DNA from: Candidatus Methanoperedens sp.
GTDB lineage: Archaea > Halobacteriota > Methanosarcinia > Methanosarcinales > Methanoperedenaceae
Assembly: GCA_049301735.1 (NCBI GenBank)
Contig: JBAQLI010000086.1
Coordinates: forward strand, 45,295 to 77,294
DNA: 32,000 bases
Direction: 5' to 3'
The notes under the pieces are model-generated. The model searched no databases. It saw only the letters and a program-made list of their open reading frames with translations, and was not told where the DNA came from. Both the position numbers and the translations under genes were made by a program. Shown here piece by piece: positions 8,303 through 29,256 of the stretch (the stretch's first letter is position 1; each line of letters starts with the position of its first letter).

Positions 8303-10266
8303 AAACAATGGAAAATATTAATAGATCTGCCGAATTGATTTTCTTAAAAATAAAGAAACTGCCATTTGTCTTGCTTGGCGACAAGATAAAAGCGAAAAAA
8401 GATCAGTTCCGTGATATGCGGATGGCATTAAGGCAGGCGCGCATCCCTATTTCGTATGAAATGTATTTATCAAACGCAGTATTTTATTCGGTAGTGACAG
8501 GTATTTTTGGAGCTATCCTGGGTTTGATAATTGCATATATTATTGTAGCCATTGTGGGTCTCCCCGACAGGATCACGCATCTGACATTCACTCAGGAAAC
8601 AGCATGGCTGCTGCAATATAAAACAATATCGATATCAATTTTTATCGTTCTATTCATGGGCGGGTTGTTTGGGATGATCACCTATCTGCTGTTTCTTGTG
8701 TATCCGGGTTTCAGGGCCGGAGAACGAAAGGGAGATATTGACAAAAACCTGCCTTATGCTGTTACTTATTTGTATGCGTTAAGCAGGGGAGGGATGAATT
8801 TAATAGAAATATTTCGTTCCTTGAGCAGGTGCGCAAGCACATATGGTGAGGTATCAAAGGAAATAGATGTTATAGTCAGGGATATGGATTATTTTGGAAA
8901 TGACCTGCGAACTGCTCTTCAAAACATTTGTGATTCCACACCATCGTCAAATTTCAGGGATCTTATGCATAATCTTCTGACAGTTATTGACAGCGGCGGA
9001 GATATTCCTACTTATTTCAGGGATAAATCAGAACAGTACCTGGTTAAGGCAAAGGTAGACCAGAAGGGATTCCTCGAAACCCTGGGATTAGTAGCTGAAT
9101 CCTATGTAACAGCTTTTGTTGCAGGACCTTTATTTATGATCATTCTTGGCGTCATGATGTCGGTCATGGGTTCTGGCACCGACATGATGATCTATGCGAT
9201 AATATACGCAGTAATACCCGTAGGTTCGATGATATTTGTGGTAATGGTCAATATTATTACACCAGGAAATACTGGTGAGGCGCCTCTTCTTCCTACCCAG
9301 AGCCATGTTGGTGAAATAATTGTTCCTGAAACTGAAGAAAAGCCGACATATCTTGGATTTATCAAGTCAAGAAATTCCCTGAAATTTAATCAAATGATCC
9401 GTGATCCGCTGAAACCACTGAGGGAAAAGCCGATATATGCTTTGGCTGTGAGTTTTCCAATTACATTTATATATTTAATTATTAACATATATTATGGGAT
9501 GAGATCACCCAACTTTATGGATTATATTGATGATAAAATCGTTTTCTCAATTTATATTCTTATTATCCCGTTGATGTTATTCCATGAGTATAAGAAAAGA
9601 AAGGAAGATAAGATACAGGAACAAATTCCTGATTTCTTAAAAAAACTGGCAAGTACCAATGAGACGGGTATGACTCTTCGCGATTCAATAAAATTGATGA
9701 CGCGTTCTGATATTGGATTGAGTAAAGAGATAAAGAAGATCAATAATGATATCGAATGGGGCCTTCCTGTTAATGAATCGCTCATCCGGTTCGCCAACCG
9801 TTTCAGGACTCATTTCATATCCCGGTCTGTCAATTTATTGACAAAAGCAAATGAATCAAGCGGAGATATTGGTGAAGTATTGAATGTGGCTGCAAGAGAC
9901 GTTGCAGCAGAACAGGAGTTGAAGAATGAACGTAAAACCAATATGTTCATTTATGTTGTAATTATTTATATATCGTTCATGGTTTTCGTAGGTATTATTT
10001 ATATTATTTCTACAACTTTCCTTACCGAGATGGTAAAAGCAGGAGAAAAGATGGCAGTCGGAGGCAGCGGGGCTGTTCCTCTTAGCCTTAACCGTGAGAA
10101 GCTGAATATGTACAATCGTATTTTCTTCCATGGCGCTCTTATCCAGGGATTTTCATCAGGTTTGATTGCAGGTGTCATGGGTGAAGGAAGTGCCCTGTCA
10201 GGCCTGAAGCATTCGGTCATCATGATGACTATTGGTTATCTGCTGTTCATATTATTCGTGCTTTAA
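8299..10266 (+). CDS. FlaJ/PilC/TadB-TadC-like polytopic platform protein (two T2SS-F type domains)
   Basis: 655 aa. ATGA overlap with the ATPase gene. Many hydrophobic helices. Two cytoplasmic T2SS-F-like segments (NLPYAVTYLYALSRGGMNLIEIFRSL... and IPDFLKKLASTNETGMTLRDSIKLM...). Confidence 0.8.
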   Translation: MKTMENINRSAELIFLKIKKLPFVLLGDKIKAKKDQFRDMRMALRQARIPISYEMYLSNAVFYSVVTGIFGAILGLIIAYIIVAIVGLPDRITHLTFTQETAWLLQYKTISISIFIVLFMGGLFGMITYLLFLVYPGFRAGERKGDIDKNLPYAVTYLYALSRGGMNLIEIFRSLSRCASTYGEVSKEIDVIVRDMDYFGNDLRTALQNICDSTPSSNFRDLMHNLLTVIDSGGDIPTYFRDKSEQYLVKAKVDQKGFLETLGLVAESYVTAFVAGPLFMIILGVMMSVMGSGTDMMIYAIIYAVIPVGSMIFVVMVNIITPGNTGEAPLLPTQSHVGEIIVPETEEKPTYLGFIKSRNSLKFNQMIRDPLKPLREKPIYALAVSFPITFIYLIINIYYGMRSPNFMDYIDDKIVFSIYILIIPLMLFHEYKKRKEDKIQEQIPDFLKKLASTNETGMTLRDSIKLMTRSDIGLSKEIKKINNDIEWGLPVNESLIRFANRFRTHFISRSVNLLTKANESSGDIGEVLNVAARDVAAEQELKNERKTNMFIYVVIIYISFMVFVGIIYIISTTFLTEMVKAGEKMAVGGSGAVPLSLNREKLNMYNRIFFHGALIQGFSSGLIAGVMGEGSALSGLKHSVIMMTIGYLLFILFVL

Positions 10267-16015: not shown

Positions 16016-16040
16016 TTTAAAACGGTATAAAGGTATAAAT
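16016..16040 (+). promoter_or_regulatory. candidate BRE/TATA promoter of MHC operon 1 (TTTAAAACGGTATAAAGGTATAAAT; tandem GGTATAAA duplication)
   Basis: The AAAACGGTATAAA core lies 36-48 nt upstream of the ATG at 16067. The same core recurs upstream of the other two cytochrome operons. Confidence 0.4.
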
Positions 16041-16066
16041 TAAAAAATAATTGTAAAACGGAAGGT

Positions 16067-17032
16067 ATGAATAAAATGCGAATGGTATTATTTAATAAAA
16101 TCTTAATTGTATTACTAATTTTAGCAGGAATTTCGGTATCTCTTTCTGGAGTGAATGCTTCTGAAAATTCATGTATCGATTGTCATAAAACCTTAACTCC
16201 TTTTATCGAAGAACAAAAGCGTTTCAACCAGATAAGGATCCAGCATCTTGAACGAGATGTGACATGTTCTCTTGAATGTCATGAAGACAGGATTAGGCAG
16301 CTTGCAACCTCTAATTACCAGCAATGGCAGGAATCTCTTCATGCTGTAAAGGGAGTCACATGTGACGCATGTCATGGAGGAGATCCAAAACAGGCTACTA
16401 AAGAAAAAGCACACGTTAATTTCAAGAACAATACAGATCCGCAAAGCCCTGTTTATTATACCAATGTTCCAAAGACCTGCGGTAAATGCCATCCAAAAGA
16501 ACTGGATAATTTTGAAAATAGTACACATTTCAAGAAGCTTGAATCATTGGAGCTTGCCCCGACATGCACAACATGCCATCATCCACATACTTTCACGGTA
16601 CTTAACCCTGAAGATTTCAGGAACTCCTGCGGAAACTGTCATTCAGTTTATAAGAAAGTAGCACCTTATGATATACCGCTTAAGGCAGAAGATATGTTAA
16701 GAAAAGTAAACAGGTTAAAATTCAATATAGAAAATGCGAGAGAGGATATTTTCTGGGCAAAGAAGAACGGAACAGATGTAGGACAGGCAGAAAAATATAC
16801 TGATAATGCCCTGAAAATATACCAGAATCTTGCTCCGATGTGGCATGAATTCAATCTCACGCATTTCGAGGATGTAATAGATTCAGCCAATATGGAAGTA
16901 AAAAAGGCTGAAGATATAGTGAAACCCACACCTTTGCCAACTAGAACTGAATCAACCCAGGTGCCTGGATTCATAGGTTTGACTGGATTAATTTCGCTGA
17001 TAGCTGTATTCTATATTCTGAGGAAAAAATAA
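16067..17032 (+). CDS. multihaem c-type cytochrome (5 CXXCH + 1 CX3CH) with PGF-CTERM-type tail
   Basis: 321 aa. Signal peptide. Haem motifs CIDCH, CSLECH, CDACH, CGKCH, CTTCH, CGNCH. Helical C-terminal region, Thr/Pro linker KPTPLPTRTESTQ, then VPGFIGLTGLISLIAVFYILRKK. Confidence 0.85.
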   Translation: MNKMRMVLFNKILIVLLILAGISVSLSGVNASENSCIDCHKTLTPFIEEQKRFNQIRIQHLERDVTCSLECHEDRIRQLATSNYQQWQESLHAVKGVTCDACHGGDPKQATKEKAHVNFKNNTDPQSPVYYTNVPKTCGKCHPKELDNFENSTHFKKLESLELAPTCTTCHHPHTFTVLNPEDFRNSCGNCHSVYKKVAPYDIPLKAEDMLRKVNRLKFNIENAREDIFWAKKNGTDVGQAEKYTDNALKIYQNLAPMWHEFNLTHFEDVIDSANMEVKKAEDIVKPTPLPTRTESTQVPGFIGLTGLISLIAVFYILRKK

Positions 17033-17086
17033 AGGCCAAAAAACGATGAAACAATATAATATTCAGTTATAGAAAGGTGATATGTA

Positions 17087-17536
17087 ATGCAGCCACATTT
17101 AAAAAGAGCTTTCACATTATTAGCTCTTGTAATAATTGCTTTTATTCTCGTAAGGTCCCTGCTTGTCCCTGAATCATTTGGACAATACGGATGGTACAGG
17201 GGAGATTCTGTAAGTGAACTCAGGAACCTTAATGTAAATTATGCAGGTTCGACAAGTTGCGGTGAAGAGAATTGTCATAAAATAATATATTCGGTCTGGG
17301 TAAAGGACAGGCATAAAACCGTAAATTGTGAAACATGTCATGGGCCAGCGCAAAAACATGTTCTTAATGCCAGGGAACCATTGGAAAAAGCGGATGAGTC
17401 AAGAGAATATTGCGGTAAATGCCACTTTAAGGGAATAGCAAAACCAGAAACGTTCCCGCAGGTCGATCCAGAGACACACGGCGAGGATCTAAGATGCGTA
17501 TATTGTCATAATCCGCATAAGCCGTGGTTTGTATAA
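17087..17536 (+). CDS. small membrane-anchored multihaem cytochrome c (3 CXXCH + 1 CX4CH; DsrJ/NrfB/ActA-position subunit)
   Basis: 149 aa. N-terminal anchor FTLLALVIIAFILV. Haem motifs CGEENCH, CETCH, CGKCH, CVYCH. GGTGA ribosome-binding site upstream. Confidence 0.8.
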   Translation: MQPHLKRAFTLLALVIIAFILVRSLLVPESFGQYGWYRGDSVSELRNLNVNYAGSTSCGEENCHKIIYSVWVKDRHKTVNCETCHGPAQKHVLNAREPLEKADESREYCGKCHFKGIAKPETFPQVDPETHGEDLRCVYCHNPHKPWFV

Positions 17537-17549
17537 AAGGAGGCATAAT

Positions 17550-18341
17550 ATGGATATATCAAGGCGAGAGTTTACTAAGATCGGATGCAAAATCATTATA
17601 GGCGCAACTGCCGGGACTACAATTGTAGAATCCCTTATTACAAATAGCATTGCAGCTGAAAACTCACCTGTGCAAGGTGGGTATAATTGGGAGGAACACT
17701 TCTGGGGCTATGTCGTGGACACACGCAAATGTATCGGCTGTGGAAGGTGCGCCAACGCATGTAAACTGGAAAACAAGGTACCATTTGATGAAGAAGTGTA
17801 CAGGACATGGATCGAAAGATATAGGGTGAAAAAAACATCATTTGAAACAAGGGAAGAAGAAGTTGTAATCGATTCGCCAGACGGGGGAATAGAAGGATTC
17901 GTAGACGACATACCCGCGGAAGAGATCAAAAAAGCTTTTTTTGTACCAAAGATATGCAATCACTGCGATAATCCTCCATGTGTCCAGGTTTGTCCTGTGG
18001 GTGCAACATATACAACAAAAGATGGTGTCGTTCTTGTGGATTATGAGTATTGTATCGGGTGCAGATATTGTATACAGGGATGTCCTTATGGCGCAAGGTA
18101 CTTTAATACTGAGAAGAGGACTGCTGACAAATGCACATGGTGTTATCACAGGATAACCAAAGGTTTATTACCGGCATGTGTTCAGGCCTGTCCTACAGGG
18201 GCACGAAAATTCGGAGACATGAAGGATAAAAATAGTGAAGTGAATAAAATAATTGACGAAGAAAGGATCAATCTTCTTAAACCCGATCTTGGTACAAAAC
18301 CCAAGGTGTTCTATATCGGTTTAGACCGGGAAGTGAAATGA
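17550..18341 (+). CDS. TAT-exported 4x[4Fe-4S] ferredoxin subunit (NrfC / PsrB / DsrO family)
   Basis: I prefer the ATG at 17550, which has AAGGAGG at 17537-17543. Twin-arginine motif MDISRREFTKIG. Four Cys clusters: CIGCGRCANAC, CNHCDNPPCVQVCP, CIGCRYCIQGCP and CTWC...CVQACP. Confidence 0.85.
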   Translation: MDISRREFTKIGCKIIIGATAGTTIVESLITNSIAAENSPVQGGYNWEEHFWGYVVDTRKCIGCGRCANACKLENKVPFDEEVYRTWIERYRVKKTSFETREEEVVIDSPDGGIEGFVDDIPAEEIKKAFFVPKICNHCDNPPCVQVCPVGATYTTKDGVVLVDYEYCIGCRYCIQGCPYGARYFNTEKRTADKCTWCYHRITKGLLPACVQACPTGARKFGDMKDKNSEVNKIIDEERINLLKPDLGTKPKVFYIGLDREVK

Positions 18342-19519
18342 TGTTAGAGAATCTGATATGGGGTTATGTTTATCCCAATGAATCTGAAATACAATGGAGT
18401 ATATTGATCGTATTGTATCCTTATATTACGGGTCTTGTAGCCGGTGCTTTCATTGCTTCATCATTATACCATGTTTTTGGCAAGAATGAGATCAAACCTG
18501 TTGCAAGATTCGCCCTTCTTACGGCATTGTCATTCCTGCTTGTTGCAATGTTGCCTTTACTTGTTCATCTTGGACGTCCTGAGCGTGGTATTGAGATCAT
18601 GTTCACGCCACATCTTACATCTGCGATGTCGGGTTTTGGTTACATATTTTCATTCTATCTTATCATAGTAGTCCTTGAGATATGGCTTTCTTTCAGGGAA
18701 GATATTGTCAAAAAGGCTCTTAGTTCACATGGATGGAAAGAATTGTTATATTCAAGTCTTGCACTGTTTTCATTTGATATTTCTGAAGAAACATTGCATA
18801 ATGATGAAAAATTTGCGAGAAAGCTTGCAATAATCGGTATTCCGTCAGCAGCGTTCCTGCACGGTTATGTTGGCTTTATATTTGGCGGCATCAAGGCAAA
18901 CCCATGGTGGTCAACTCCACTTATGCCAATTATATTCCTTATGTCAGCTATAGTATCAGGGATAGCCCTATTGATCTTACTCTATATTGTCGCAATGAAA
19001 ATAAGGAAACATGCTATTGACCATAAATGTCTCCAATCACTTGCACATTACCTGTGGATTTTCCTGATCCTTGATGTAACACTGGAATTGCTTGAGATAA
19101 TAAGCATGAAATACGCATCACGTGAAGATATCGATATTATTAACAGACTCCTTTCGGATAAAATTGGCTTTACTTTCTGGGGAGTGCAACTGACACTTGG
19201 CATATTAATACCATTTATTCTATTGCTCGCGGTCAACTTCATCAAGAAACGAGATACGCTGAAAATGATAATGATTTCTATTTCATGCATTTTTGTCGTA
19301 ATAGGCGTATTTGCCATGAGATGGAATGTAGTGATCGGAGGTCAGGAAATATCAAAGAGCCTTGTAGGAACGCTTACTTACGTTCCTGTATTCTTTAGCC
19401 AGGAAGGAGTTTTACCGGCAATAATAATATTTATGCTCCCATTCATTATACTGCGGGTTGTGACGTCTATCCTGCCGCCGTGGAAAGATATGGAAGAAGA
19501 AACACAAAAGCTTAATTAA
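18338..19519 (+). CDS. NrfD / PsrC / DsrP-family integral membrane quinol-interacting subunit
   Basis: 393 aa and strongly hydrophobic, with roughly 8-10 helices by eye. ATGA overlap with the Fe-S subunit gene. The family call rests on size, topology and the canonical pairing with a TAT NrfC-type subunit. Confidence 0.7.
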   Translation: MMLENLIWGYVYPNESEIQWSILIVLYPYITGLVAGAFIASSLYHVFGKNEIKPVARFALLTALSFLLVAMLPLLVHLGRPERGIEIMFTPHLTSAMSGFGYIFSFYLIIVVLEIWLSFREDIVKKALSSHGWKELLYSSLALFSFDISEETLHNDEKFARKLAIIGIPSAAFLHGYVGFIFGGIKANPWWSTPLMPIIFLMSAIVSGIALLILLYIVAMKIRKHAIDHKCLQSLAHYLWIFLILDVTLELLEIISMKYASREDIDIINRLLSDKIGFTFWGVQLTLGILIPFILLLAVNFIKKRDTLKMIMISISCIFVVIGVFAMRWNVVIGGQEISKSLVGTLTYVPVFFSQEGVLPAIIIFMLPFIILRVVTSILPPWKDMEEETQKLN

Positions 19520-19544
19520 TTATATCAAAGCCCTGGAAAATTGA

Positions 19545-19581
19545 CACAGAGACTCAAAAAAGAACTCTGTGCCCTTTTTTT
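19545..19581 (+). terminator. hairpin plus oligo-T terminator of MHC operon 1
   Basis: CACAGAG (19545-19551) pairs with CTCTGTG (19565-19571) and is followed by CCC and T7 (19575-19581). It lies 26 nt after the NrfD-like stop. Confidence 0.5.
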
Positions 19582-19686
19582 CTAAAATATCGTTAAAAAA
19601 ATCTATTTCTTATACAGTTACATTAGTGAATATTATCGCAAACTTTTTATTGTAGGGAATCATCACATCATTAACAGATAAACAGA

Positions 19687-19705
19687 ATAAAAAACGGGTA
19701 CATAG
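19687..19705 (+). promoter_or_regulatory. candidate promoter of MHC operon 2 (ATAAAAAACGGGTACATAG)
   Basis: Shares AAAAACGGGTA with the element upstream of the minus-strand cytochrome operon and AAAACGG-TA with operon 1. Lies 53-71 nt upstream of the ATG at 19758. Confidence 0.35.
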
Positions 19706-19757
19706 TTCTGACATTAAAAGATAGGATATTGAATCATAACAACGGTGAAAAGGAAAA

Positions 19758-20729
19758 ATGTCTTCAAAAGTTAAAAGCCCAAATTCTTACGTGTATAGTT
19801 TTAGATTTGCTTGTTTAATATTAATTGTCTTTATTTTCTTGATTGCTCCTGCAGGAGCAAATTTAGAGGCCTTTAATAATTCGTGTATAAGTTGTCATAA
19901 AAGTTTATCACCTTTTACGGATGAACAAATAAGATTCAACGATATCAGATCCAATCATACCGACAGAAATATATCCTGCTCGCTTGAATGCCATGAAGAT
20001 ATAATAAGGAAAAAAGCTTCAGACAATTTCCAGCAGTGGTCTGATTCGGGTCATTCTAGTTATTTTGTGACCTGTGATGCATGCCATGGAGGCAATCCGG
20101 ATGTAAATACTGAAGCAGGAGCTCATTCTCCCATGAAGAATATTACTGATCCGGAAAGTCCGGTTTATTATAAAAATATTCCTGAAACATGTGGAGAATG
20201 CCATTCAACGGAATTAGAGCATTTTAAAAATACTATGCATTATCAAAGATTAAGCGCGGAAAAACGTGCTCCGTCTTGTGTTAATTGCCATCAGCCTCAT
20301 AGCTTTAAAGTGTTAAAGGCATCTGAAATTACTACACTTTGCAGTTTTTGCCACAATCAAAAAGACCAGATTGCATCTGCGAATGTTCCCGGTGATGCAA
20401 AATTTGCTCTTGAAAAAGCAGATGAATTAAAAGAAGATATTCGTTTGGCCGAAAATTCCATATCTGAAGCAAAGACAAAAGGAAGAGATATAGTATCAGC
20501 CCAAAATGATCTTGATAAAGCAAAATCTGTGTTGAACGATGTTCCATCATTGTGGCATAGTTTTGATCTTAAAGATTTCGACAATCAAATTCAAATCGGG
20601 ATAGATTCGGCCAACAGAGCACAAGGTAAATTAAGTGAAACTGAAAAAATTGTTCATTCTGTCCCTGGAATAGGAATAGTACTTGTCATGGGAATATTCA
20701 CAATATTGTATTTTATTAGAAAACGGTGA
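19758..20729 (+). CDS. multihaem c-type cytochrome, paralogue of 16067-17032 (5 CXXCH + 1 CX3CH), PGI-variant C-terminal anchor
   Basis: 323 aa. Haem motifs CISCH, CSLECH, CDACH, CGECH, CVNCH, CSFCH occur in the same order and spacing as the paralogue. C-terminus VPGIGIVLVMGIFTILYFIRKR. Confidence 0.85.
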   Translation: MSSKVKSPNSYVYSFRFACLILIVFIFLIAPAGANLEAFNNSCISCHKSLSPFTDEQIRFNDIRSNHTDRNISCSLECHEDIIRKKASDNFQQWSDSGHSSYFVTCDACHGGNPDVNTEAGAHSPMKNITDPESPVYYKNIPETCGECHSTELEHFKNTMHYQRLSAEKRAPSCVNCHQPHSFKVLKASEITTLCSFCHNQKDQIASANVPGDAKFALEKADELKEDIRLAENSISEAKTKGRDIVSAQNDLDKAKSVLNDVPSLWHSFDLKDFDNQIQIGIDSANRAQGKLSETEKIVHSVPGIGIVLVMGIFTILYFIRKR

Positions 20730-20740
20730 AGGGGATATCA

Positions 20741-21835
20741 ATGGATAATATATCACTTATAGATGTTATTAAGCATAGGATTTCAAAATATAAACTTCCT
20801 ATAATCATTGTATTGATAGTTTTGCTTTCAATCACACTGGTAATTTCAGTGGAAATGCTGGAAATTACTGAAAATCCTGCATTTTGTGGTAAGAATTGCC
20901 ATATAATGAGACCATATTACGACTCATGGAGATCATCATCCCACACTACAGTAAAATGTGTGGAATGTCATTATGAACCAGGTGTAATAGGCCATGTAAA
21001 AGGTAAAATAAACGGGCTGATGCAATTTTATAGCTATGAGACCACGGTGGAAGAATACAATGGTAAGTTATATGCTAAAGTCATGGATAAAAACTGCCTT
21101 GTATGTCATGAAGATCGTATTTTTTCAACCGATGTTCCATTCACAGGAGTTAATTTCAGTCATAAGAACCATTTGTTAAAACAAAATAGAGGTATAGGAT
21201 TAACATGTACAAGTTGTCATTCCATGCTTGTTATCGGAATGAAAGAACACCAGTCGGTATCAGATCCGTCATGTGCCCAATGTCATCCAAATATGGAACA
21301 GAAAGAAAGAGGGCACATAGTGGTAACAACATCTACATGTTTTACCTGCCACTTTAGAGATATTCCAGGCAATACTTCGGTATCAGGCTGTCCCTCATGC
21401 CACGGCCCTCCAAAAAATGTGCCCAAAAATTATACAAACTTTGATCATACAAGCCATTTGAGCCGTGGAGCTGATTGCCTGACATGCCATACTGGTATAT
21501 CAAAGGGTGCAAATGACATTGTTTCCAGGGACAAATGCAATTCGTGCCATTATAGTTCGGAAAGGCTAGAAAAATATAATGATTTTAATTTTGTACATAA
21601 GAATCATGTAACAAATAATAAGATCGCCTGTTACAACTGTCATTCTGAAGTACAACATGTACCCGGAATAAAGGAAAATCTATGTACCAATTGTCATAAG
21701 AGCGAGCATCCAGCCGATTGGTTGAGTACTCATAAGTCACAGGTATTAATAGGTAAAGTTTGCAGCGATTGCCACCAACCAAAGTTCTGTTCGGATTGCC
21801 ATGCCACAGGAAAGGCTGTCAAAATGGCAAAATAA
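20741..21835 (+). CDS. NapC/NirT-like membrane-anchored multihaem cytochrome (12 CXXCH + 1 CX3CH)
   Basis: I prefer the ATG at 20741 (GAAGGGG upstream). The track uses GTG 20726, which overlaps the previous stop. A transmembrane helix is followed by TENPAFCGKNCHIMRPYYDSWRSSSHTTVKCVECH, which is colinear with the NapC/NrfH N-terminus (EFCISCHEM...H...CxDCH). Eleven further CXXCH motifs follow. Confidence 0.8.
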   Translation: MDNISLIDVIKHRISKYKLPIIIVLIVLLSITLVISVEMLEITENPAFCGKNCHIMRPYYDSWRSSSHTTVKCVECHYEPGVIGHVKGKINGLMQFYSYETTVEEYNGKLYAKVMDKNCLVCHEDRIFSTDVPFTGVNFSHKNHLLKQNRGIGLTCTSCHSMLVIGMKEHQSVSDPSCAQCHPNMEQKERGHIVVTTSTCFTCHFRDIPGNTSVSGCPSCHGPPKNVPKNYTNFDHTSHLSRGADCLTCHTGISKGANDIVSRDKCNSCHYSSERLEKYNDFNFVHKNHVTNNKIACYNCHSEVQHVPGIKENLCTNCHKSEHPADWLSTHKSQVLIGKVCSDCHQPKFCSDCHATGKAVKMAK

Positions 21836-22062
21836 TTAGTGAACCAGAGTCATATTATAGAAAAATAATGCTATGGTATGGCTTTCTCATTTTTTTTAGT
21901 CCGTAACTCAGCATATCCAAATAGAATGTTTATTTATGTAGTTTCGAACTTCTGCGATGTAATAATACATATTACCATATCTTGATGAATGAAACCTACC
22001 AGAATTGCAATGCGGTGAGCCGATAAGCGTACTATTAACACTTTCGGTCAACATTATCTTAA

Positions 22063-22118
22063 CGGCGCTGGGGTTTCGACCCCAGACCCCGGCGGATGCG
22101 CCGCCGCTGGCGGGGTTT
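22063..22118. other. GC-rich double-hairpin element in an AT-rich convergent intergenic region (candidate small structured RNA; strand unknown)
   Basis: Hairpin 1 is CTGGGG-tttcga-CCCCAG (22068-22085). Hairpin 2 (22086-22116) has outer stem ACCCC/GGGGT and inner stem GGCGG-atgcg-CCGCC, with a 6-nt 3' bulge. No ORF and no known family recognised. Confidence 0.3.
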
Positions 22119-22270
22119 AAATAAACTCACGGTTGCATATTTTTGCGATTCTCCACACTTACACGATATAAGAAGATAATATCCATTATCTGTTTGTCCG
22201 GTCAGTTCCCCTTTTAACAGATTGAATTAAAAAAGAAAACTATCTGCCGACTGGCAAATAGTAATAAAAC

Positions 22271-23029
22271 CTACCTGGACAAAGAACTATCCATTTTTTC
22301 ATTCGTCTGTCTCATGGCCTCTTCATACTCAAGAGGATGTTCATGTTTCATCTGTTTCTCTGACAGGTTGCCTGTAAGCCATGCTTTTGACATGGGGAAT
22401 ACTTCAGGGCTGTAATGAACATTCCACCAGTGGACAATAAAGATAAACAGCGTAGCCAGTAATGCTTCATCTGTATGAACGATGGTGGAAAGATGCACGT
22501 AAGCATAAGGAATTATTTCCATAGCCTTGAACGGATACAACATTATTAATCCGGTTACGCAGAGCATCACCATTCCCCAGAATGCACCCCAGTAATCAAA
22601 TTTCTCCTTCCAGCTATATCTTCCATATTTAGGCGCTTGCGCTTTTCCAAGGTAGAACATTATTGTCTGCCAGAAATCCTTTGCATCCTTTAAAGTAGGC
22701 CATATTTTTCTATCAAGCAACGATTCCTTATCAACAAAAACATGATAAACAATATGATACACCCCAAGGATAACCATCCCTATACCTGCAGCATGATGTA
22801 TCTGTGTCCTCATTGCAAATCCTCCAAGGAGATTGACAATTACCGGGGACCACCACGCATCCGGGAATTTCAGGGGCATTCCACTTATTACTAAAAGCAT
22901 GAACGTGCCTATCATTGCCCAATGCTGTGCAAGCTGATTGAAAGTAAACCTTTTAAAATAAATTTCACCCATATTTCTTTCTCCATTTTTTTTAAAATCT
23001 AAAGCTTCAATTATTTTTTGCCTGGACAT
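22271..23029 (-). CDS. dihaem cytochrome b-type membrane subunit (FdnI / HydC / cytochrome b561-like)
   Basis: 252 aa. N-terminal FKRFTFNQLAQHWAMIGTFMLLVISG pattern, 4-5 helices, and His-bearing helices (IHHAAGIGMVILGVYHIVYH; VHTDEALLATLFIFIVHWW). Starts 3 nt after the upstream cytochrome c gene. Confidence 0.75.
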   Translation of the reverse strand: MSRQKIIEALDFKKNGERNMGEIYFKRFTFNQLAQHWAMIGTFMLLVISGMPLKFPDAWWSPVIVNLLGGFAMRTQIHHAAGIGMVILGVYHIVYHVFVDKESLLDRKIWPTLKDAKDFWQTIMFYLGKAQAPKYGRYSWKEKFDYWGAFWGMVMLCVTGLIMLYPFKAMEIIPYAYVHLSTIVHTDEALLATLFIFIVHWWNVHYSPEVFPMSKAWLTGNLSEKQMKHEHPLEYEEAMRQTNEKMDSSLSR

Positions 23030-23032
23030 ATT

Positions 23033-23986
23033 CTAAAATCTCCTCTGGATCTTTAGCCTTGATAAGAAATCAAGAATTACCATTCCTGTAAAGAAACCTA
23101 TCACGGTAGTGGTCAATATCTTGAAAAATATTGCTATCCAATAAGCAAGGTCAAACGGACCAAGGAAATAATCTTTCATATTAGAATCCATGTTTTTTTT
23201 ATTCCACTTAAGCTCGGCTGTATGCAAAGATTCTTTATCATGTACGAGCCCTCCTGCTACCTTGGCATCAAAATTCACTCCCGCATGGCAATTATCTTTT
23301 CCGCATGTTTTAGGAATATTTTCAGGGTAAGTACTTGAAGTGGGATCTGTATGGGATTTAGTTTTATGATTCTCATGGCAGTCGGCACATGTTGCAACCA
23401 GGGTATAGCCTTTATCAAGCGCCCTCCAATGGAATGATTCTTTATATGTATCGAATCGGTCTGCCTTAATACCGTAATACCATGCACTCATCATTTCGCT
23501 GTTTGAATGACACTTGGCACATGTCGCAGGGCTGTTATGATGATTAGAAGATGAATTAGGATCTTTTATGGCCCGGATCTCATGTATTCCATGACAATCT
23601 GTGCAGGTTGCTGCATCAGGATGGCCTTTCTGGATCGCATCCCAGTGAATGCTTGTCTTATAATCTTGAGTCTCCTTTATATGACATTTAGAGCAAATGT
23701 CGGTAATATTATTTCTTGTGGGCCTGCCAACAAAATCTCCTGACATTACAGAATTGGAGATCAAACTGGAATTGGATTTTTCTGCTCCACCATGACAACT
23801 TGCACAGTTAAAGCCTTTATCGTAATGGATATTGTTCCTGAATTCATTCACCACTTTAGTGTGGCAATGATAACATGAAACATCTTCCTGGGCACCAGCA
23901 ACACCGATATATAACGATAACAAAATTGCTAAAATTAACATGTATTTATTTTTAAACAGTAAATATTTTCTATTGCTTAGAGACAT
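23033..23986 (-). CDS. multihaem c-type cytochrome (6 CXXCH + 1 CX4CH) with C-terminal transmembrane anchor
   Basis: 317 aa. Signal peptide. Haem motifs CYHCH, CASCH, CSKCH, CTDCH, CAKCH, CADCH, CGKDNCH. C-terminal helix TTTVIGFFTGMVILDFL. Confidence 0.85.
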   Translation of the reverse strand: MSLSNRKYLLFKNKYMLILAILLSLYIGVAGAQEDVSCYHCHTKVVNEFRNNIHYDKGFNCASCHGGAEKSNSSLISNSVMSGDFVGRPTRNNITDICSKCHIKETQDYKTSIHWDAIQKGHPDAATCTDCHGIHEIRAIKDPNSSSNHHNSPATCAKCHSNSEMMSAWYYGIKADRFDTYKESFHWRALDKGYTLVATCADCHENHKTKSHTDPTSSTYPENIPKTCGKDNCHAGVNFDAKVAGGLVHDKESLHTAELKWNKKNMDSNMKDYFLGPFDLAYWIAIFFKILTTTVIGFFTGMVILDFLSRLKIQRRF

Positions 23987-24020
23987 TCAATGATACCTCT
24001 CATAACCTATCCATCCTTCA

Positions 24021-24037
24021 CTTATACCCGTTTTTAA
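24021..24037 (-). promoter_or_regulatory. candidate promoter of the minus-strand cytochrome operon (reads TTAAAAACGGGTATAAG on the minus strand)
   Basis: Lies 35-51 nt upstream of the ATG at 23986. It has the same AAAACGG(G)TA core as the two plus-strand cytochrome operons. Confidence 0.4.
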
Positions 24038-24138: not shown

Positions 24139-24816
24139 ATGAACGCAGTTGATATTGAAAAAGAAATAGAGTGTATTTATTCATTTCCTGACGAAGTTTA
24201 TATTAAAATAATCCGTGAAGTGGGATTTGAATGTGATTTCTGCGGTAAATGCTGCACGAGTGAATTTAACGATCATGTCTTCCTGCTCGATGATGATGCG
24301 CAAAGGATAATCGAAATTGCCGGGAGGGAATTTCTCAGGCCTGCGCCATATTTTGATCTATGTGACAATCTTGGAAGATTTTACGTAATGGGTTATGCCC
24401 TGAAAACAAAACCGAATGGGGATTGCATATTCTATACTGGCACAAGATGCGAACATTATGAAGCTCGTCCCTGGATATGCAAAATATATCCATATATGCT
24501 TCACAGGGAGCCTGATGAAGAAGGAAATATTGAATTCAGGCAAATAAGCGGCCTGGATCTGCATGGATTGTATCACAATGAAATAAGTGAGAAGATATGC
24601 GAGGAGATACTAAAATCAGTAAAGGATTATGAATCCGGATTTCTCAGGCAAAAAATTGGATTTATCAAAGAGATCGAAAGATATTTCAAAGAAAATGATT
24701 TAAGAAGCAGCAAGCAGATGTATGACAGGATGATGAGGCAGTATCAGAAAGGTAAAGCAATAGAGGTATATGTATTCTTCCAGGGAAGATTTGAAAAAGA
24801 AGTAATAGCCAAATAA
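24139..24816 (+). CDS. YkgJ-family Cys-cluster (CxxCxxCC) putative Zn/Fe-binding protein
   Basis: 225 aa. Motifs CDFCGKCCT and GDCIFYTGTRCEHYEARPWICKIYPY, typical of the family. Confidence 0.75.
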   Translation: MNAVDIEKEIECIYSFPDEVYIKIIREVGFECDFCGKCCTSEFNDHVFLLDDDAQRIIEIAGREFLRPAPYFDLCDNLGRFYVMGYALKTKPNGDCIFYTGTRCEHYEARPWICKIYPYMLHREPDEEGNIEFRQISGLDLHGLYHNEISEKICEEILKSVKDYESGFLRQKIGFIKEIERYFKENDLRSSKQMYDRMMRQYQKGKAIEVYVFFQGRFEKEVIAK

Positions 24817-24866: not shown

Positions 24867-25673
24867 ATGACAAAAGAATGTTATTATTGCGGTTTCAAGG
24901 ACCCTATGCCGTTCACGTGCAAATTCTGCGGTAATTCCTATTGTTATAACCACCGGCTTCCTGAATCACACAATTGTCCCGGGCTTTTAGAATATAAATC
25001 GAGGGCAAGAGATACCGGGATCTTTTATAAGAAGGACTCTGTAGTTAGACGGAAACAAAACCCTCTCTTGAATTCATTAAATAATATTATCTCTGCTGTT
25101 AAAAGTAATTATTCTTTGATGATTCTTTTGATCGCTCTCATTTCTTTTGTGTTGCAGTATATTATTCCCGGATATTTTTCTTATCTGGCTCTTTCACCCT
25201 ATTATATTTTCTCCAGGCCATGGACACTTATCACACACATGTTCCTGCATTCCGGACCTGTACATCTTCTCTTCAATATGATGTTCCTATTCTTTTTCGG
25301 GCCTGAGCTTGAGCGACGAATAGGGGGAAAAAGATTCCTCTTTGTATTTTTCATTTCTGGGATTATCGCTGCGATCGGCTATTCATTGTGGTCGGTTTTC
25401 ATTTTGAAAGAATATTCGACAGCCGTTGGTGCTAGTGGCGCTTTGTTCGGGATATTTGCATGTCTTGCTGTTCTTGCGCCAGATATCGAGGTTGGTTTGT
25501 TTTTTTTTATTCGCATGAAGATAACATATGCATTGATATTTTTTGCTCTTTTTGACCTTTTGTTCATAGGCTCAAGCGGTGACCTGGTAGCAAGAAGTGC
25601 ACACTTAAGCGGAGTGGTAGCGGGTCTGGCTTTTGGAAAATACTTAAAAAAGAAAGGAAATTATCTTCGTTAA
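24867..25673 (+). CDS. rhomboid-family intramembrane serine protease with N-terminal AN1 zinc finger
   Basis: 268 aa. AN1 finger CYYCGFKDPMPFTCKFCGNSYCYNHRLPESHNC. Rhomboid motifs HMFLHSGPVHLLFNM, GASGALFG (catalytic Ser) and AHLSG (catalytic His). Confidence 0.8.
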   Translation: MTKECYYCGFKDPMPFTCKFCGNSYCYNHRLPESHNCPGLLEYKSRARDTGIFYKKDSVVRRKQNPLLNSLNNIISAVKSNYSLMILLIALISFVLQYIIPGYFSYLALSPYYIFSRPWTLITHMFLHSGPVHLLFNMMFLFFFGPELERRIGGKRFLFVFFISGIIAAIGYSLWSVFILKEYSTAVGASGALFGIFACLAVLAPDIEVGLFFFIRMKITYALIFFALFDLLFIGSSGDLVARSAHLSGVVAGLAFGKYLKKKGNYLR

Positions 25674-26028: not shown

Positions 26029-26131
26029 AATATCGTATCTTTTCCTGAACATATTTAACATGACTGTAATCAAGTTGAGTCATTATATTGAAAATATATT
26101 TATATCAAATAGACCATATTAAACGTCTATA

Positions 26132-27097
26132 ATGAACGGAGAATTTACGAAAATAATCGAAGCATCACGACCATCTGTGGCCGTAATCGGACTTGGGGGT
26201 GCTGGAAGCAACATAATAACCTTCCTTTCGGATAAAAACATTGCAGGCGCAAAAATCATTGCGGCAAATTCAGATATCAGCCATCTTATCCTCCAGCGGG
26301 CAGATAAATTATTGCTGCTGGGAAAAGACAGAAGTAAAGGCAAAGGATGCGGTGGATTCCCGGAAGTTGGCGCAGAATGCGCGCAGGAAAGTAAGGAGGA
26401 TATCCAAAAAGAACTTGAAGGAGCAAATATTGTATTTATCGTTGCAGGTCTTGGGGGAGGGACTGGCACAGGCTCAGCTCCTGTTGTTGCAGAAATTTCA
26501 CATTCAATGGGCGCACTCACAATAGCCTGCCTGACAATGCCTTTTGAAATCGAATCCTTGAGACGTGAAAATGCCAAAAAAGCGATACGTGCTCTTTCGC
26601 AAACATGTGATTCCGTCGTTTTGATAGATAACACAAAACTCAGGCAGGTCGCAGGAAACCTGCCTCTTAAGACGGCTTTTGCTGTAGCGAATTCATTAAT
26701 CGGGGCATTCATTAAAAGTATTACAGAAACCATCACCCTCCCGAGCCTTATGAACCTTGATTTTGCAGACTTAAAAGCTGTGCTTGAAAATAAAGGTATT
26801 TCCTCATTCGGGATAGGGGAATCAGAAGGTCCGGACCGCGTGAAAAAAGCAGTATTAAAGGCAGTATCTGCTCCTCTTCTTGATATTCCTGATCTTGGGT
26901 CTGCACATGGTCTGCTGATCCATATCAGTGGCGGGCAGGACCTGACCCTTGAAGAAGTGGCGCATGTGGATGAATTGATGGCGCAACAGGTTCCAGGTAC
27001 AAAAAGGATAATCTGGGGTGCAAATGTGGATGAGACCATGACAGGGCGAATCCGCATTATGGCATTGTTCGCAAGCGTCGGCAACCCTTTTGAGTGA
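26132..27097 (+). CDS. ftsZ: FtsZ/tubulin-family GTPase, short paralogue lacking a C-terminal tail
   Basis: 321 aa. Motifs VAVIGLGGAGSNI, GLGGGTGTGSAPVVAEI (tubulin signature), GALTIACLTMPF and NLDFADLKAV (T7 loop). The protein ends right after the globular domain (IRIMALFASVGNPFE). Confidence 0.8.
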   Translation: MNGEFTKIIEASRPSVAVIGLGGAGSNIITFLSDKNIAGAKIIAANSDISHLILQRADKLLLLGKDRSKGKGCGGFPEVGAECAQESKEDIQKELEGANIVFIVAGLGGGTGTGSAPVVAEISHSMGALTIACLTMPFEIESLRRENAKKAIRALSQTCDSVVLIDNTKLRQVAGNLPLKTAFAVANSLIGAFIKSITETITLPSLMNLDFADLKAVLENKGISSFGIGESEGPDRVKKAVLKAVSAPLLDIPDLGSAHGLLIHISGGQDLTLEEVAHVDELMAQQVPGTKRIIWGANVDETMTGRIRIMALFASVGNPFE

Positions 27098-27345
27098 TTG
27101 AATTTTTGACAAATATAAGAGAAATTAGCAATTACGAGACTAAAGAGCAAAAAGAGGCATTATAAAAAGCAGCTGATCAAAGTGTAAAGGGTTGTTTTTT
27201 TTTTGTTATAATCATAATTATTACAATAATTTTTTAAATCTTTAAACTGCAATAATTATAAGTAGACAGTAATCCAATAGAAAATAATCATTCAAGACAG
27301 GTCTTTTGACGATTCATTGAATGAACCAAAATATGGAGGAAGAAA

Positions 27346-27547: not shown

Positions 27548-28492
27548 ATGCTCGAAATAATAACTCCCTCCCGTCTGCATTTGACACTGATCGATATGAA
27601 TGCCAGCATTGGGCGCGTTGATGGAAGCATTGGCCTGACTCTTGATAATCCCGTAATAAAAATAAAAGCCCGAAAATCGGATATTATTGAAATAACAGGC
27701 TGTAGCGAGCATATTGAACGCATAAGGAATAGCGCAAAAGCTCTGCTTCCTGATGGCGAGGGAATACAGATCTCAATCGAAGAAGATTACCCATCACATA
27801 TTGGTCTTGGTTCAGGCACCCAGGCAGCTCTTGCGGCTGGCATGGCTGTAGGTGAATTGTATGACCTTGGCCTGTCTGTTCATGAAATTGCAGTAAAAGT
27901 GGGAAGGGGAGGCACAAGCGGCATTGGAGTCGCTGCATTTGAAAATGGCGGATTCATACTTGATGGGGGGCATAAATTCAGCCAGAAGAGGGCATTTCTT
28001 CCCTCAGCGGCAAGCAAGCTTCCTCCAGCACCTGTTTTATTAAGAAAGGAGTTCCCTGATTGGGATATCGTTGTAATTGTGCCTGAACAGAAAGGTGCAT
28101 CACAACAAAATGAAGTGGATATATTCCAGAAAGAATGTCCGGTTCCACTCAAGGAAGTTGAGGCGCTATCCCATGTGATCCTGATGCAGCTTCTTCCGGC
28201 GCTTTTCGAGAACGACATCGTTACATTCGGGAAAAGTATCTATGCGATCCAGGAACTGGGTTTTAAGAAACGGGAAGTTGAATTGCAGCCAATTTCATTG
28301 GATTTGATGCAGGCTTTAAGAGATGGCGGTGCCAATGGCGCAGGTATGAGTTCATTCGGGCCAACCGTGTATGCTTTCGGGGAGGATACGGAAAACCTCA
28401 AGAAAATCGCCAGTGAGCTCCTTGGTGGCAGAGGACTGGTATTTCGTACAAAAGCGAGGAACAGGGGAGCGATTATTGGTAAATGTCAATAA
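27548..28492 (+). CDS. mptG: beta-ribofuranosylaminobenzene 5'-phosphate synthase (GHMP-kinase fold; methanopterin biosynthesis)
   Basis: 314 aa. N-terminus LEIITPSRLHLTLIDMNASIGRVDGSIGLTL and GHMP motif HIGLGSGTQAALAAG match my memory of the beta-RFAP synthase family. Confidence 0.7.
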   Translation: MLEIITPSRLHLTLIDMNASIGRVDGSIGLTLDNPVIKIKARKSDIIEITGCSEHIERIRNSAKALLPDGEGIQISIEEDYPSHIGLGSGTQAALAAGMAVGELYDLGLSVHEIAVKVGRGGTSGIGVAAFENGGFILDGGHKFSQKRAFLPSAASKLPPAPVLLRKEFPDWDIVVIVPEQKGASQQNEVDIFQKECPVPLKEVEALSHVILMQLLPALFENDIVTFGKSIYAIQELGFKKREVELQPISLDLMQALRDGGANGAGMSSFGPTVYAFGEDTENLKKIASELLGGRGLVFRTKARNRGAIIGKCQ

Positions 28493-29256
28493 GAATTAGT
28501 GTATTAAAACATTATCAAAGTCTCTCCAGGGACTATGATCATAGATTTGACAATCCCCGTATCAATTATATGAGGTCTGTAGAGAAAATAGTTCTCCTGA
28601 ATAGCCTGAAGATGGGATTGATACTTGATATTGGTTGCGGAACAGGAGAACAATCTGTGTTCCTGGCTGAAAAAGGATATCGGATACTGGGTGTAGATAT
28701 ATCTAAAGAAATGATAAAAATAGCAAAAGGGAGGATAAAAGATGCCAAATTCAAGGACAATTTGTCTTTTGTTATTGCATCAGCTGAATTTCTTCCATTT
28801 CGCGATAAAAGTTTTGAAGGCATAATTTCCATCTTTGGAATATTTAATCATATTCCAAACGTCGATCATGCCTTCCATGAGACATCCAGGGTTTTAAAAA
28901 CTGGCGGCCAGGCCATCTTTACAGTGGTTAACAGGTGGAATCTGACATGGTGGGTCAATGCTTTTATAAAATGTAAGGGAAGCTGGATAATATCTTCCCT
29001 GAGAAGTAAAGAGTATGTAGTGAATGGGTTGTGGACGTATTATTTTTCAAGAGGGGACCTGATAAAAAGACTCAAGGATGTCGGATTCAAAGTAAAAATC
29101 GGAAGTTTGTTATTGTTTGTATACCCGTTTTATTCAAAGAAATTATTATTGTATGAAAAAATATTCATTCGTTTTGAGGATGCATTAAGATGGTATTACC
29201 CATTCAATAGCCTGGGTTATTATCACCTTGTCATGATAGAAAAAGATGCCGTATAA
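28483..29256 (+). CDS. class I SAM-dependent methyltransferase
   Basis: 257 aa. Motif I ILDIGCGTGEQS, plus ILGVDIS. The start lies 10 nt inside the end of the upstream gene. Confidence 0.8.
   Translation: MSIRISVLKHYQSLSRDYDHRFDNPRINYMRSVEKIVLLNSLKMGLILDIGCGTGEQSVFLAEKGYRILGVDISKEMIKIAKGRIKDAKFKDNLSFVIASAEFLPFRDKSFEGIISIFGIFNHIPNVDHAFHETSRVLKTGGQAIFTVVNRWNLTWWVNAFIKCKGSWIISSLRSKEYVVNGLWTYYFSRGDLIKRLKDVGFKVKIGSLLLFVYPFYSKKLLLYEKIFIRFEDALRWYYPFNSLGYYHLVMIEKDAV

Follow-up and report, generated by a model that had tools for sequence, protein, structure and literature searches.

Archaea of the genus Candidatus Methanoperedens (anaerobic methanotrophic archaea of clade 2d, ANME-2d) remove methane from freshwater sediments with nitrate, iron, manganese or electrodes, and the exit of electrons from the membrane is the central open step. 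Five menaquinone:cytochrome c oxidoreductase clusters have been described in the family, including one type that combines an NrfD protein with an iron-sulfur (FeS) protein and a multihaem cytochrome (MHC) and another that combines cytochrome b with a 6-haem MHC, and multiple clusters were proposed to serve acceptors of different potential (Leu et al., 2020, PMC7327174). Here we describe a cytochrome island of about 8 kb (16067-23986) within a 32-kb Methanoperedens window (the whole stretch of DNA that was analysed); the island holds leading candidates for this electron exit, which earlier studies have named, counted and tracked by transcriptomics. We read it as two adjacent, already described clusters of this kind, with three modules that would export menaquinol electrons, and assign this reading a probability of about 0.78. 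The core of the finding, namely the cluster types, the lack of a terminal reductase and the acceptor-dependent switching, has been published (PMC7327174, PMC10542353). What appears to go beyond the papers compared is the presence of two quinol-entry modules in one cluster (Group 1), a promoter motif linked to cytochrome genes, and bacterial gene strings in which all three module types are found together.

The island contains eight open reading frames (ORFs) in three transcription units (4 + 2 + 2), at the same coordinates as in a first-pass annotation made from the sequence alone; that annotation had counted nine genes in three operons, and the three units stand while the gene count is eight (A-D, E-F and H-G):

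16067-17032, plus strand: A, hexahaem c-type cytochrome, 321 amino acids (aa)
17087-17536, plus strand: B, tetrahaem anchored cytochrome, 149 aa
17529-18341, plus strand: C, four-[4Fe-4S] protein, 270 aa (longest ORF)
18338-19519, plus strand: D, NrfD-family membrane subunit, 393 aa
19758-20729, plus strand: E, hexahaem paralogue of A, 323 aa
20726-21835, plus strand: F, 13-haem cytochrome, apparently of NapC/NirT/NrfH type, 369 aa
22271-23029, minus strand: G, FdnI/HydC-type cytochrome b, 252 aa
23033-23986, minus strand: H, heptahaem cytochrome, 317 aa

Each of the five cytochromes carries one variant haem motif besides its canonical ones: A and E have 5 CxxCH motifs plus CSLECH, B has 3 plus CGEENCH, F has 12 plus CGKNCH and H has 6 plus CGKDNCH. 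The island total is 36 haem-c motifs (31 canonical and 5 variant, CX3CH or CX4CH), in agreement with the earlier count of about 36. In a six-frame translation of the window, 31 of the 34 CxxCH motifs fall inside A, B, E, F and H, and their concentration there is therefore not due to chance.

The closest described system is the Group 1 cluster, whose cytochromes in M. nitroreducens are Methanoperedens_02260 (12 CXXCH motifs), 02261 (5), 02264 (3) and 02265 (5) (Zhang et al., 2023, PMC10542353). The same four cytochromes were listed earlier as MPEBLZ_03194/03195/04299/04300 and ANME2D_00599/600/603/604, and the extra CxxxCH or CxxxxCH motifs in the counterparts of A, B and F were already noted (Arshad et al., 2015, PMC4683180). 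The CXXCH counts and order of Methanoperedens_02260-02265 match those of F, E, (D and C, unlisted), B and A. By motif count, A corresponds to MPEBLZ_03194, ANME2D_00599 and Methanoperedens_02265 (PMC4683180, PMC10542353), E to MPEBLZ_04299, ANME2D_00603 and Methanoperedens_02261, and F to MPEBLZ_04300, ANME2D_00604 and Methanoperedens_02260. We therefore identify A-F, from motif counts and gene order, as a member of the published Group 1 cluster, ANME2D_00599-00604, which has these six genes in this order, with CXXCH counts of 5, 3, FeS, NrfD, 5 and 12, and for which a passage of menaquinol electrons to outer cytochromes was likewise proposed (PMC7327174, PMC10542353). Likewise, G-H can be assigned to the published type of cytochrome b plus 6-CXXCH cytochrome (Group 3 or Group 4 in Leu et al., 2020), in which a cytochrome b also stands beside an MHC with 6 CXXCH motifs and a signal peptide, and elsewhere (locus L089) the pair is free-standing. 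G-H differs from these groups in that H has seven haem motifs once CGKDNCH is counted and in that the pair lies here next to Group 1, as it does in only a minority of genomes. Leu et al. report that the cytochrome b descended vertically.

Loci used for comparison are numbered with the prefix L. A scan of reference genomes with D gave about 40 Methanoperedens loci at 76-98% identity (BLZ2 at 98%, LFW-24 at 97%) and about 40 bacterial loci at 43-54%, and all window proteins were then searched against these loci with tblastn. The ANME-2 or Methanoperedens origin suggested in the first-pass annotation is borne out; the protein database gives the same picture, and the next-best named matches after Methanoperedens, at 55-57%, are mostly Chloroflexi/Dehalococcoidales, with one annotated as Thaumarchaeota and one as Clostridiales. 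Across the genus, the orthologues of the Group 1 cluster are 60-98% identical.

Three candidate quinol-oxidising modules

Family assignments were made with Pfam and NCBIfam profile hidden Markov models and topology was read from simple hydropathy and motifs; every family assignment of the first-pass annotation (C, D, F and G) was upheld. D matches the Pfam NrfD family (PF03916, 3e-50, 172 bits, cutoff 25.8) and has about 10 transmembrane segments, only 2 Cys and a set of invariant polar residues. No match to D was found in the PDB by single sequence or by an 18-sequence profile. Its AlphaFold model (pLDDT 79, pTM 0.83) is nearest in Foldseek to ActC of Alternative Complex III (ACIII; 8k9e_C, TM-score 0.76, E 3e-8), with 16-19% identity in the structural alignment; ActF comes second and the eight-helix PsrC falls far behind (TM-score 0.42). 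On the strength of this model, D is presumed to be an ActC-type, haem-free NrfD protein carrying a menaquinol site.

C is predicted to be a Tat-exported (twin-arginine translocation) four-[4Fe-4S] protein of the PsrB/DsrO/NrfC/ActB type. It matches Fer4_11 (1e-29, 103 bits), DsrO (204 bits, cutoff 200) and TtrB (5e-68), the TtrB and NrfC scores being close below their equivalog cutoffs, its 16 Cys fall into four cluster motifs, and its Tat motif reads SRREFTK. In a PDB sequence search its closest match is PsrB (2vpw_B, 2e-48), and the FeS domain of ActB is also found (6btm_B, 5e-30). The longest ORF opens at TTG 17529, overlapping the end of B; ATG 17550 (263 aa), after which the Tat motif lies, is the more likely start. 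B is CbcS-like, with a single N-terminal anchor and a first haem motif spaced CX4CH.

With 41% identity (E 4e-89), A and E prove to be paralogues, as had been claimed for the two 6-motif MHCs. Both have an N-terminal signal peptide and a C-terminal transmembrane helix, within a PGF...RKK tail in A and a PGI...RKR tail in E. The earlier description of these tails as surface anchors holds for the helix with its basic end. The tails resemble PGF-CTERM sorting signals but stay below the model cutoffs, with 12.4 bits against the PGF-CTERM model TIGR04126 (cutoff 24.5) and 16.6 bits against the Heimdall-CTERM model (cutoff 24).

In the first module, D would oxidise menaquinol and pass electrons through the FeS wire of C to B, the tetrahaem exit, with A as the tethered hexahaem acceptor, around a core of the ACIII or Geobacter Cbc4 type. 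ACIII, a quinol:cytochrome c oxidoreductase, has no catalytic metal site; the predicted fold of D is nearest to ActC, C resembles the FeS domain of ActB, and F and B resemble ActA in haem packing, whereas A-F lack the molybdopterin-like domain of ActB as well as ActD, ActE and ActF. The likenesses to Geobacter are drawn from architecture as described (bioRxiv 10.1101/2025.04.14.648717, 10.1101/2021.04.15.440034), and it is at this level that the earlier Geobacter analogies hold: B-C-D is like Cbc4, G-H like CbcBA, and F like ImcH, NrfH and CymA. Cbc4 of Geobacter sulfurreducens (CbcS-CbcT-CbcU, GSU0068-0070) consists of an anchored tetrahaem cytochrome of ~150-160 aa, a four-[4Fe-4S] protein and an integral membrane subunit, which is the layout of B-C-D, and both are without a catalytic subunit. 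They differ in that Methanoperedens adds the tethered hexahaem A and B has the CX4CH first motif.

F appears to be a 13-haem protein of the NapC/NirT/NrfH type with a conserved quinol-site signature, and would form a second quinol-entry module of Group 1. It has one N-terminal transmembrane helix (residues 24-42), and its N-terminus matches NapC/NirT (PF03264, 4e-11, 43 bits, cutoff 24.1) over profile positions 8-167 of 174; against the NCBIfam NrfH model it scores 1e-17 and 64 bits, below the cutoff of 134. Its PDB matches are ActA chains of ACIII and NrfH, and beyond the N-terminal tetrahaem domain the haem packing is ActA-like. The haem 1 motif of NrfH, C43xxC46H47-I-M49, aligns with C54-GKN-C58-H59-I-M61 of F, and Lys82 of NrfH aligns with K94. 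Among the 120 best homologues of F, the haem-1 Met is invariant, and of the 117 that extend over the Lys site all but one (116) have the Lys. An insertion of one residue in the haem-1 motif is confined to Methanoperedens, and bacterial relatives of about 600 aa have the canonical CXXCHXM. F shares with NrfH, CymA and ImcH the N-terminal transmembrane helix, the tetrahaem NapC/NirT domain, the haem-1 CH-x-M and the Lys82 equivalent. It differs from them in its thirteen haems (NrfH and CymA have four, ImcH seven), in the CX3CH spacing of its first motif, in a Gln at the position of Asp89 and in lacking an NrfA partner. In this second module, F would act as quinol dehydrogenase and E as its tethered acceptor. 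The term NapC is not used in the text of the Methanoperedens and ANME papers compared, where F is treated simply as a cluster cytochrome; Arshad et al. mention NapC/NirT only for a separate NrfH (PMC4683180).

G matches Ni_hydr_CYTB (PF01292, 2e-10, 41 bits, cutoff 30.1) and FdnI (2e-15), and its score of 57 bits against the formate dehydrogenase gamma equivalog (cutoff 116) is as expected for a member outside formate dehydrogenase. It aligns with E. coli FdnI (1kqf_C, 5e-8), so that H36, H78/79, H185 and H200 fall on the FdnI haem ligands H18, H57, H155 and H169; all four haem-b histidines are kept in a protein of four transmembrane helices and two haems. H has a signal peptide and a C-terminal transmembrane helix in a CbcA-like architecture and is paired with G in every case examined. 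The pair has the layout of G. sulfurreducens CbcBA, in which a four-helix two-haem cytochrome b and a seven-haem C-terminally anchored cytochrome lie side by side; in CbcBA one haem-b His is thought to come from the CbcA C-terminal helix, whereas G keeps four FdnI-type His and the helix of H has none. Electrons in this second cluster would pass from the two-haem G to the heptahaem H, held by its C-terminal helix as in CbcBA.

Expression and the destination of the electrons

In the proposed mechanism, the modules would take menaquinol electrons at the outer face of the cytoplasmic membrane and hand them to membrane-tethered MHCs in the pseudoperiplasm, from which other cytochromes encoded elsewhere would carry them to extracellular acceptors or partners. 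The best-supported arrangement is that of three independent modules facing the pseudoperiplasm. Gene content, cofactor motifs, topology signals, homology, synteny and motif conservation are shown here and expression by the published studies; we infer the electron direction, the subunit contacts, the quinol specificity and the choice of module by acceptor potential. The first-pass annotation had left the pool as quinone or methanophenazine; published work supports menaquinone and not methanophenazine (PMC7327174, PMC4683180).

An electron-export role is consistent with published transcriptomes on nitrate, Fe(III) and Mn(IV) (PMC4683180, PMC10542353, PMC7082337). The counterparts of A, B, E and F reached 767-1073 reads per kilobase per million (RPKM) in a nitrate-fed culture (PMC4683180), and Methanoperedens_02265 about 1459 on nitrate (PMC10542353). 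Group 1 MHCs were highest on soluble Fe(III), at about 1600-2060 versus 100-174 on an electrode, and three of the four Group 1 cytochromes were up 4-5 fold on Fe(III) relative to nitrate (PMC10542353). An NrfD/FeS/3- and 6-haem operon was highly expressed on Mn(IV) (Leu, 2020, PMC7082337), and another Methanoperedens cluster, with NrfD/FeS/MHC and Fdh-like cytochrome b/MHC together, was electrode-induced (Ouboter et al., 2024, PMC10874420). Zhang et al. likened the way in which use shifts between Groups 1, 3 and 5 to Geobacter ImcH/CbcL (PMC10542353). Switching by acceptor potential, which the first-pass annotation suggested as a possibility, is an idea that has already been published (PMC7327174, PMC10542353). 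If Group 1 has two quinol-entry proteins and not one, its expression data would be read differently.

The modules could instead be the ordinary respiratory supply of Nar or Nrf, the nitrate and nitrite reductases of the pseudoperiplasm, whose genes lie elsewhere. The abundance of A, B, E and F on nitrate fits such a role, as does the resemblance of C to the FeS subunits of Psr, Ttr, Arr and Nrf, and a cytochrome c was proposed as the Nar donor (Arshad et al., PMC4683180); the same model, however, has Nar fed by a Rieske/cytochrome b complex, and a dedicated NrfH serves Nrf (PMC4683180). The rise on Fe(III) over nitrate and the high expression on Mn(IV) also speak against it, and bacterial homologues lie beside very large MHCs. 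Furthermore, no reductase gene is a conserved neighbour across more than 90 loci, in agreement with the earlier statement that a catalytic reductase is absent: a profile scan of the window's genes found no catalytic subunit (molybdopterin, NrfA or other), and no conserved catalytic neighbour was found for B-C-D in the about 40 bacterial loci or related loci, nor for the G-H homologues. A conserved catalytic neighbour, which the first-pass annotation had named as grounds for refuting its reading, was looked for in these loci and not found. A single molybdopterin gene occurs in L088, 8.5 kb downstream and past unrelated genes. We consider a dedicated supply of Nar or Nrf unlikely.

Less probable still is that the modules run in reverse and carry electrons from extracellular donors (Fe(II), cathodes or partner cells) to menaquinone, like QrcABCD of sulfate reducers. 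Qrc-like NrfD/FeS/cytochrome complexes are reported to be quinone reductases (PMC6303296, PMC13059093), and the FdnI-type cytochrome b anchor reduces quinone in Fdh-N (1kqf). Methanoperedens, however, is a methane oxidiser that must shed electrons, its expression rises with oxidised acceptors (PMC10542353, PMC7082337), and the structural matches of the modules, ACIII and NrfH, are both quinol oxidases.

Several points nevertheless weigh against the export of menaquinol electrons by three modules. In other organisms, modules with NrfD or cytochrome b can pass electrons either way. The quinol site of D is presumed from its modelled fold alone, with no PDB relative detectable by sequence; Asp89 of NrfH is replaced by Gln100 in F, and the haem 1 motif of F is spaced CX3CH. 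The function assigned in Methanoperedens derives from homology and transcript levels. Expression is also good in nitrate-fed cultures (PMC4683180, PMC10542353), and the modules could on that account feed pseudoperiplasmic nitrate or nitrite reductases and not extracellular acceptors.

A motif shared by the three promoter regions

The box AAAACGG(G/A)TA, often followed by GATAGG, is promoter-proximal in all three units, being found before A, E and H as the first-pass annotation had claimed. Each unit is read as having its own promoter region and terminator:

16019-16032, plus strand: box upstream of A, AAAACGGTATAAAG, degenerate (one G short), overlapping a TATA-like TATAAA, 48 nt before the ATG
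19682-19726, plus strand: element upstream of E with core AAAAAACGGGTAC, exact 10-mer at 19691-19700, then a GATAGGAT box
24007-24034, minus strand: element upstream of H, AAAACGGGTATAAG then GGATGGATAGG, exact 10-mer at 24025-24034
19545-19581, plus strand: likely terminator of unit 1, CACAGAG-N13-CTCTGTG, then CCC and T7
22262-22239, minus strand: terminator-like hairpin and T-rich tail after G, from a hairpin scan

AAAACGGGTA occurs as an exact copy 67 nt ahead of E and 48 nt ahead of H. The motif borders directly on TATA-like sequence, and all four intergenic AAAACGG sites of the window fall, sense-oriented, in these three upstream regions. The orthologous regions upstream of A in other loci have AAAAACGGATAGGTAT at a similar distance, and A-upstream regions across loci bear AAAAACGGATAGG. 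The core AAAAACGGGTAC is kept upstream of E in about 20 of 27 loci, flanked in the window by an imperfect inverted repeat, CAGAA/TTCTG, and the free-standing H-G unit in L089 has two tandem AAAAACGGG boxes and GGATAGG. Among genes with an upstream spacer in the Methanoperedens loci, a sense AAAACGG occurs within 150 nt upstream of 54 of 83 MHC genes versus 4 of 306 other genes; orthologous positions are among these counts, which are not independent. When one mismatch is allowed, the 10-mer gives 3 matches in the window by itself versus 1.9 expected, which is not significant; the case for the motif rests on position, orientation and conservation across genomes.

The box is probably the site of a common regulator, to judge from these patterns, and may be either a regulator site or a special element like the B recognition element (BRE). 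Co-regulation of the three operons, as first proposed, is supported to the extent of this shared cis-element; simple co-expression is argued against, because Groups 1 and 3 of M. nitroreducens respond differently to acceptors (PMC10542353). The motif could be used to trace the regulator and the rest of its regulon.

An RNA hairpin around the E motif (GCCAGAA/TTCTGGC, with apparent compensatory changes) was considered and rejected: in 24 sequences, 76% of cells pair versus 74% in shuffles, 37 of 500 shuffles reach the observed pairing, the covariation is not significant and RNAalifold gives no stem. A DNA-level site is the more likely explanation of the motif upstream of E.

Immediately ahead of their starts (16055-16069, 19740-19760 and 20720-20728), A, E and F also share AACGG(A/T)(A/G), as AAAACGGAAGGTATG, AACGGTGAAAAGGAAAAATG and AAAACGGTGAAGG, a likeness that is probably in part the Shine-Dalgarno region (GGAGGTGA-like); this Shine-Dalgarno-like AACGG makes simple tallies of AAAACGG beside cytochrome genes too high. 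A third exact copy of AAAACGGGTA, at 29122-29131 on the minus strand, lies inside and opposite to a methyltransferase gene (28483-29256) and is probably a chance occurrence. A sigma-70 promoter scan, uninformative for an archaeon, found 32 sites against 31 expected.

The hairpin and T7 run described earlier at the end of operon 1 are present. The stem (19545-19551 with 19565-19571) and the T7 run (19575-19581) were identified by reading the sequence, the loop being too long for the hairpin scanner. A T8 run follows F near 21890.

Gene order in Methanoperedens and in bacteria

No untruncated Methanoperedens locus lacks A-B-C-D. E-F comes immediately after it in about 26 loci and is missing from about 11 others with room for it, and G-H is adjacent in only 6 of about 40 (L001, L008, L013, L030, L037 and L043). 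In BLZ2, whose NrfD is 98% identical, similarity stops 56 nt past F, G-H is absent from this position, and an S-layer protein gene and unrelated genes come next; in L089, H-G is a free-standing pair amid housekeeping genes. The compact co-location of the three modules, singled out in the first-pass annotation as the standout feature, is therefore not conserved.

The convergent spacer of 435 nt between F and G contains a GC-rich, strongly self-pairing element, GGCGCTGGGGTTTCGACCCCAGACCCCGGCGGATGCGCCGCCGCTGGCGGGG (21900-22230, core 22062-22118; -31 kcal/mol over 85 nt), with no tRNA or Rfam match. It is absent from all other Methanoperedens loci compared, and the spacer is conserved only over the first 56 nt after F (in BLZ2) and the last 46 nt (in L037). 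The element sits at the synteny breakpoint and could be an insertion remnant.

In bacteria, B stands beside C-D in every locus examined (24-41% identity), and across the about 40 bacterial loci the B-C-D core alone is conserved. B-C-D is the mobile core, and several quinol-oxidising modules in one locus are recurrent. Among other relatives, the NrfD module occurs with a Rieske/cytochrome b complex in L086 and L087, and bacterial G-type cytochrome b genes sit in MHC-cytochrome b tandems. The neighbours that recur in bacteria are response regulators of the LuxR type and very large MHCs in which CarboxypepD_reg and collagen-like domains occur. In high-GC bacterial loci the ORF picker gave antisense artefacts, and neighbour clustering there, backed by Pfam on representatives, was used only for showing that no catalytic neighbour recurs.

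In two loci of Chloroflexi type, L081 and L088, a single uninterrupted, co-directional string encodes homologues of H, G, F (its N-terminal domain), B, C and D, which match the window proteins at E 1e-13 to 1e-132. These strings might suggest that the three modules are one co-inherited machine, a supercomplex or redox loop, and not alternatives. The NrfD clade of these bacteria is sister to the Methanoperedens clade (identity ranking; PMC7327174), and one motif is common to the three promoter regions. In its fullest form, such a proposal would have a single ancestral tri-modular operon, intact in L081 and L088, give rise in Methanoperedens to one functional and regulatory, cooperating unit with a dedicated AAAACGG(G/A)TA...GATAGG regulator. 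Within Methanoperedens, however, the modules separate: A-D occurs without E-F, G-H adjoins in few loci, is gone beside F in BLZ2 and stands free in L089, Groups 1 and 3 differ in their response to acceptors (PMC10542353), and B-C-D is the sole part conserved across bacteria. A single machine is unlikely, and we regard descent from one ancestral operon into a cooperating unit as similarly improbable. We favour three independent export modules in two adjacent clusters.

The strings themselves (L081:3275-13044 and L088:5291-19138) encode an MHC with 7 CxxCH motifs and a C-terminal transmembrane helix, a cytochrome b, a NapC/NirT MHC of 512-514 aa, an MHC of 194 aa, an FeS protein and NrfD. A 15-haem MHC directly follows NrfD, and a surface-type MHC of ~800 aa with collagen-like and CarboxypepD_reg domains lies further downstream. 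Each string has the look of a complete candidate operon for electron export in bacteria of Gram-positive or monoderm type, and such operons would be a more tractable source for biochemistry or structures.

Other combinations were seen in more distant relatives. L086:7711-15236, from an archaeal relative with NrfD at 62%, has A-B-C-D, an E-like MHC, two small ORFs, a Rieske protein and a split cytochrome b, and so joins the NrfD cluster to a non-canonical bc1-type cluster that is a separate group in Leu et al. In L092:1-10614 (Dehalococcoidales), three NrfD/FeS modules lie in a row, two with MHCs and one with a mono-haem-type cytochrome c, followed by an MtrC-like MHC.

The window is AT-rich (GC 0.28-0.48), its flanks are housekeeping genes, and tRNA and Rfam scans across its whole length found no known RNAs. 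About 6 kb upstream of the cytochromes, at 5858-10266, a secretion ATPase resembling PilB3 (814 aa) and a membrane platform protein of the T2SSF type (655 aa) form an archaeal type IV pilus-like assembly pair. Two proteins (809-2527 and 24867-25673) start with an AN1-type zinc finger and continue with domains unrelated to it: one has a CAP/cysteine-rich secretory domain, the other a rhomboid protease. The gene for the rhomboid and a CxxCxxCC-domain gene (24139-24816) stay beside H-G in L001, L008, L013 and L037. Finally, two long ORFs on opposite strands overlap nearly entirely (26119-27150, minus strand, and 26132-27097, plus strand). The minus-strand ORF (343 aa) is without a Pfam match and contains, near 27073, a CEQCH motif, the sole other in-ORF CxxCH of the window beyond the island.

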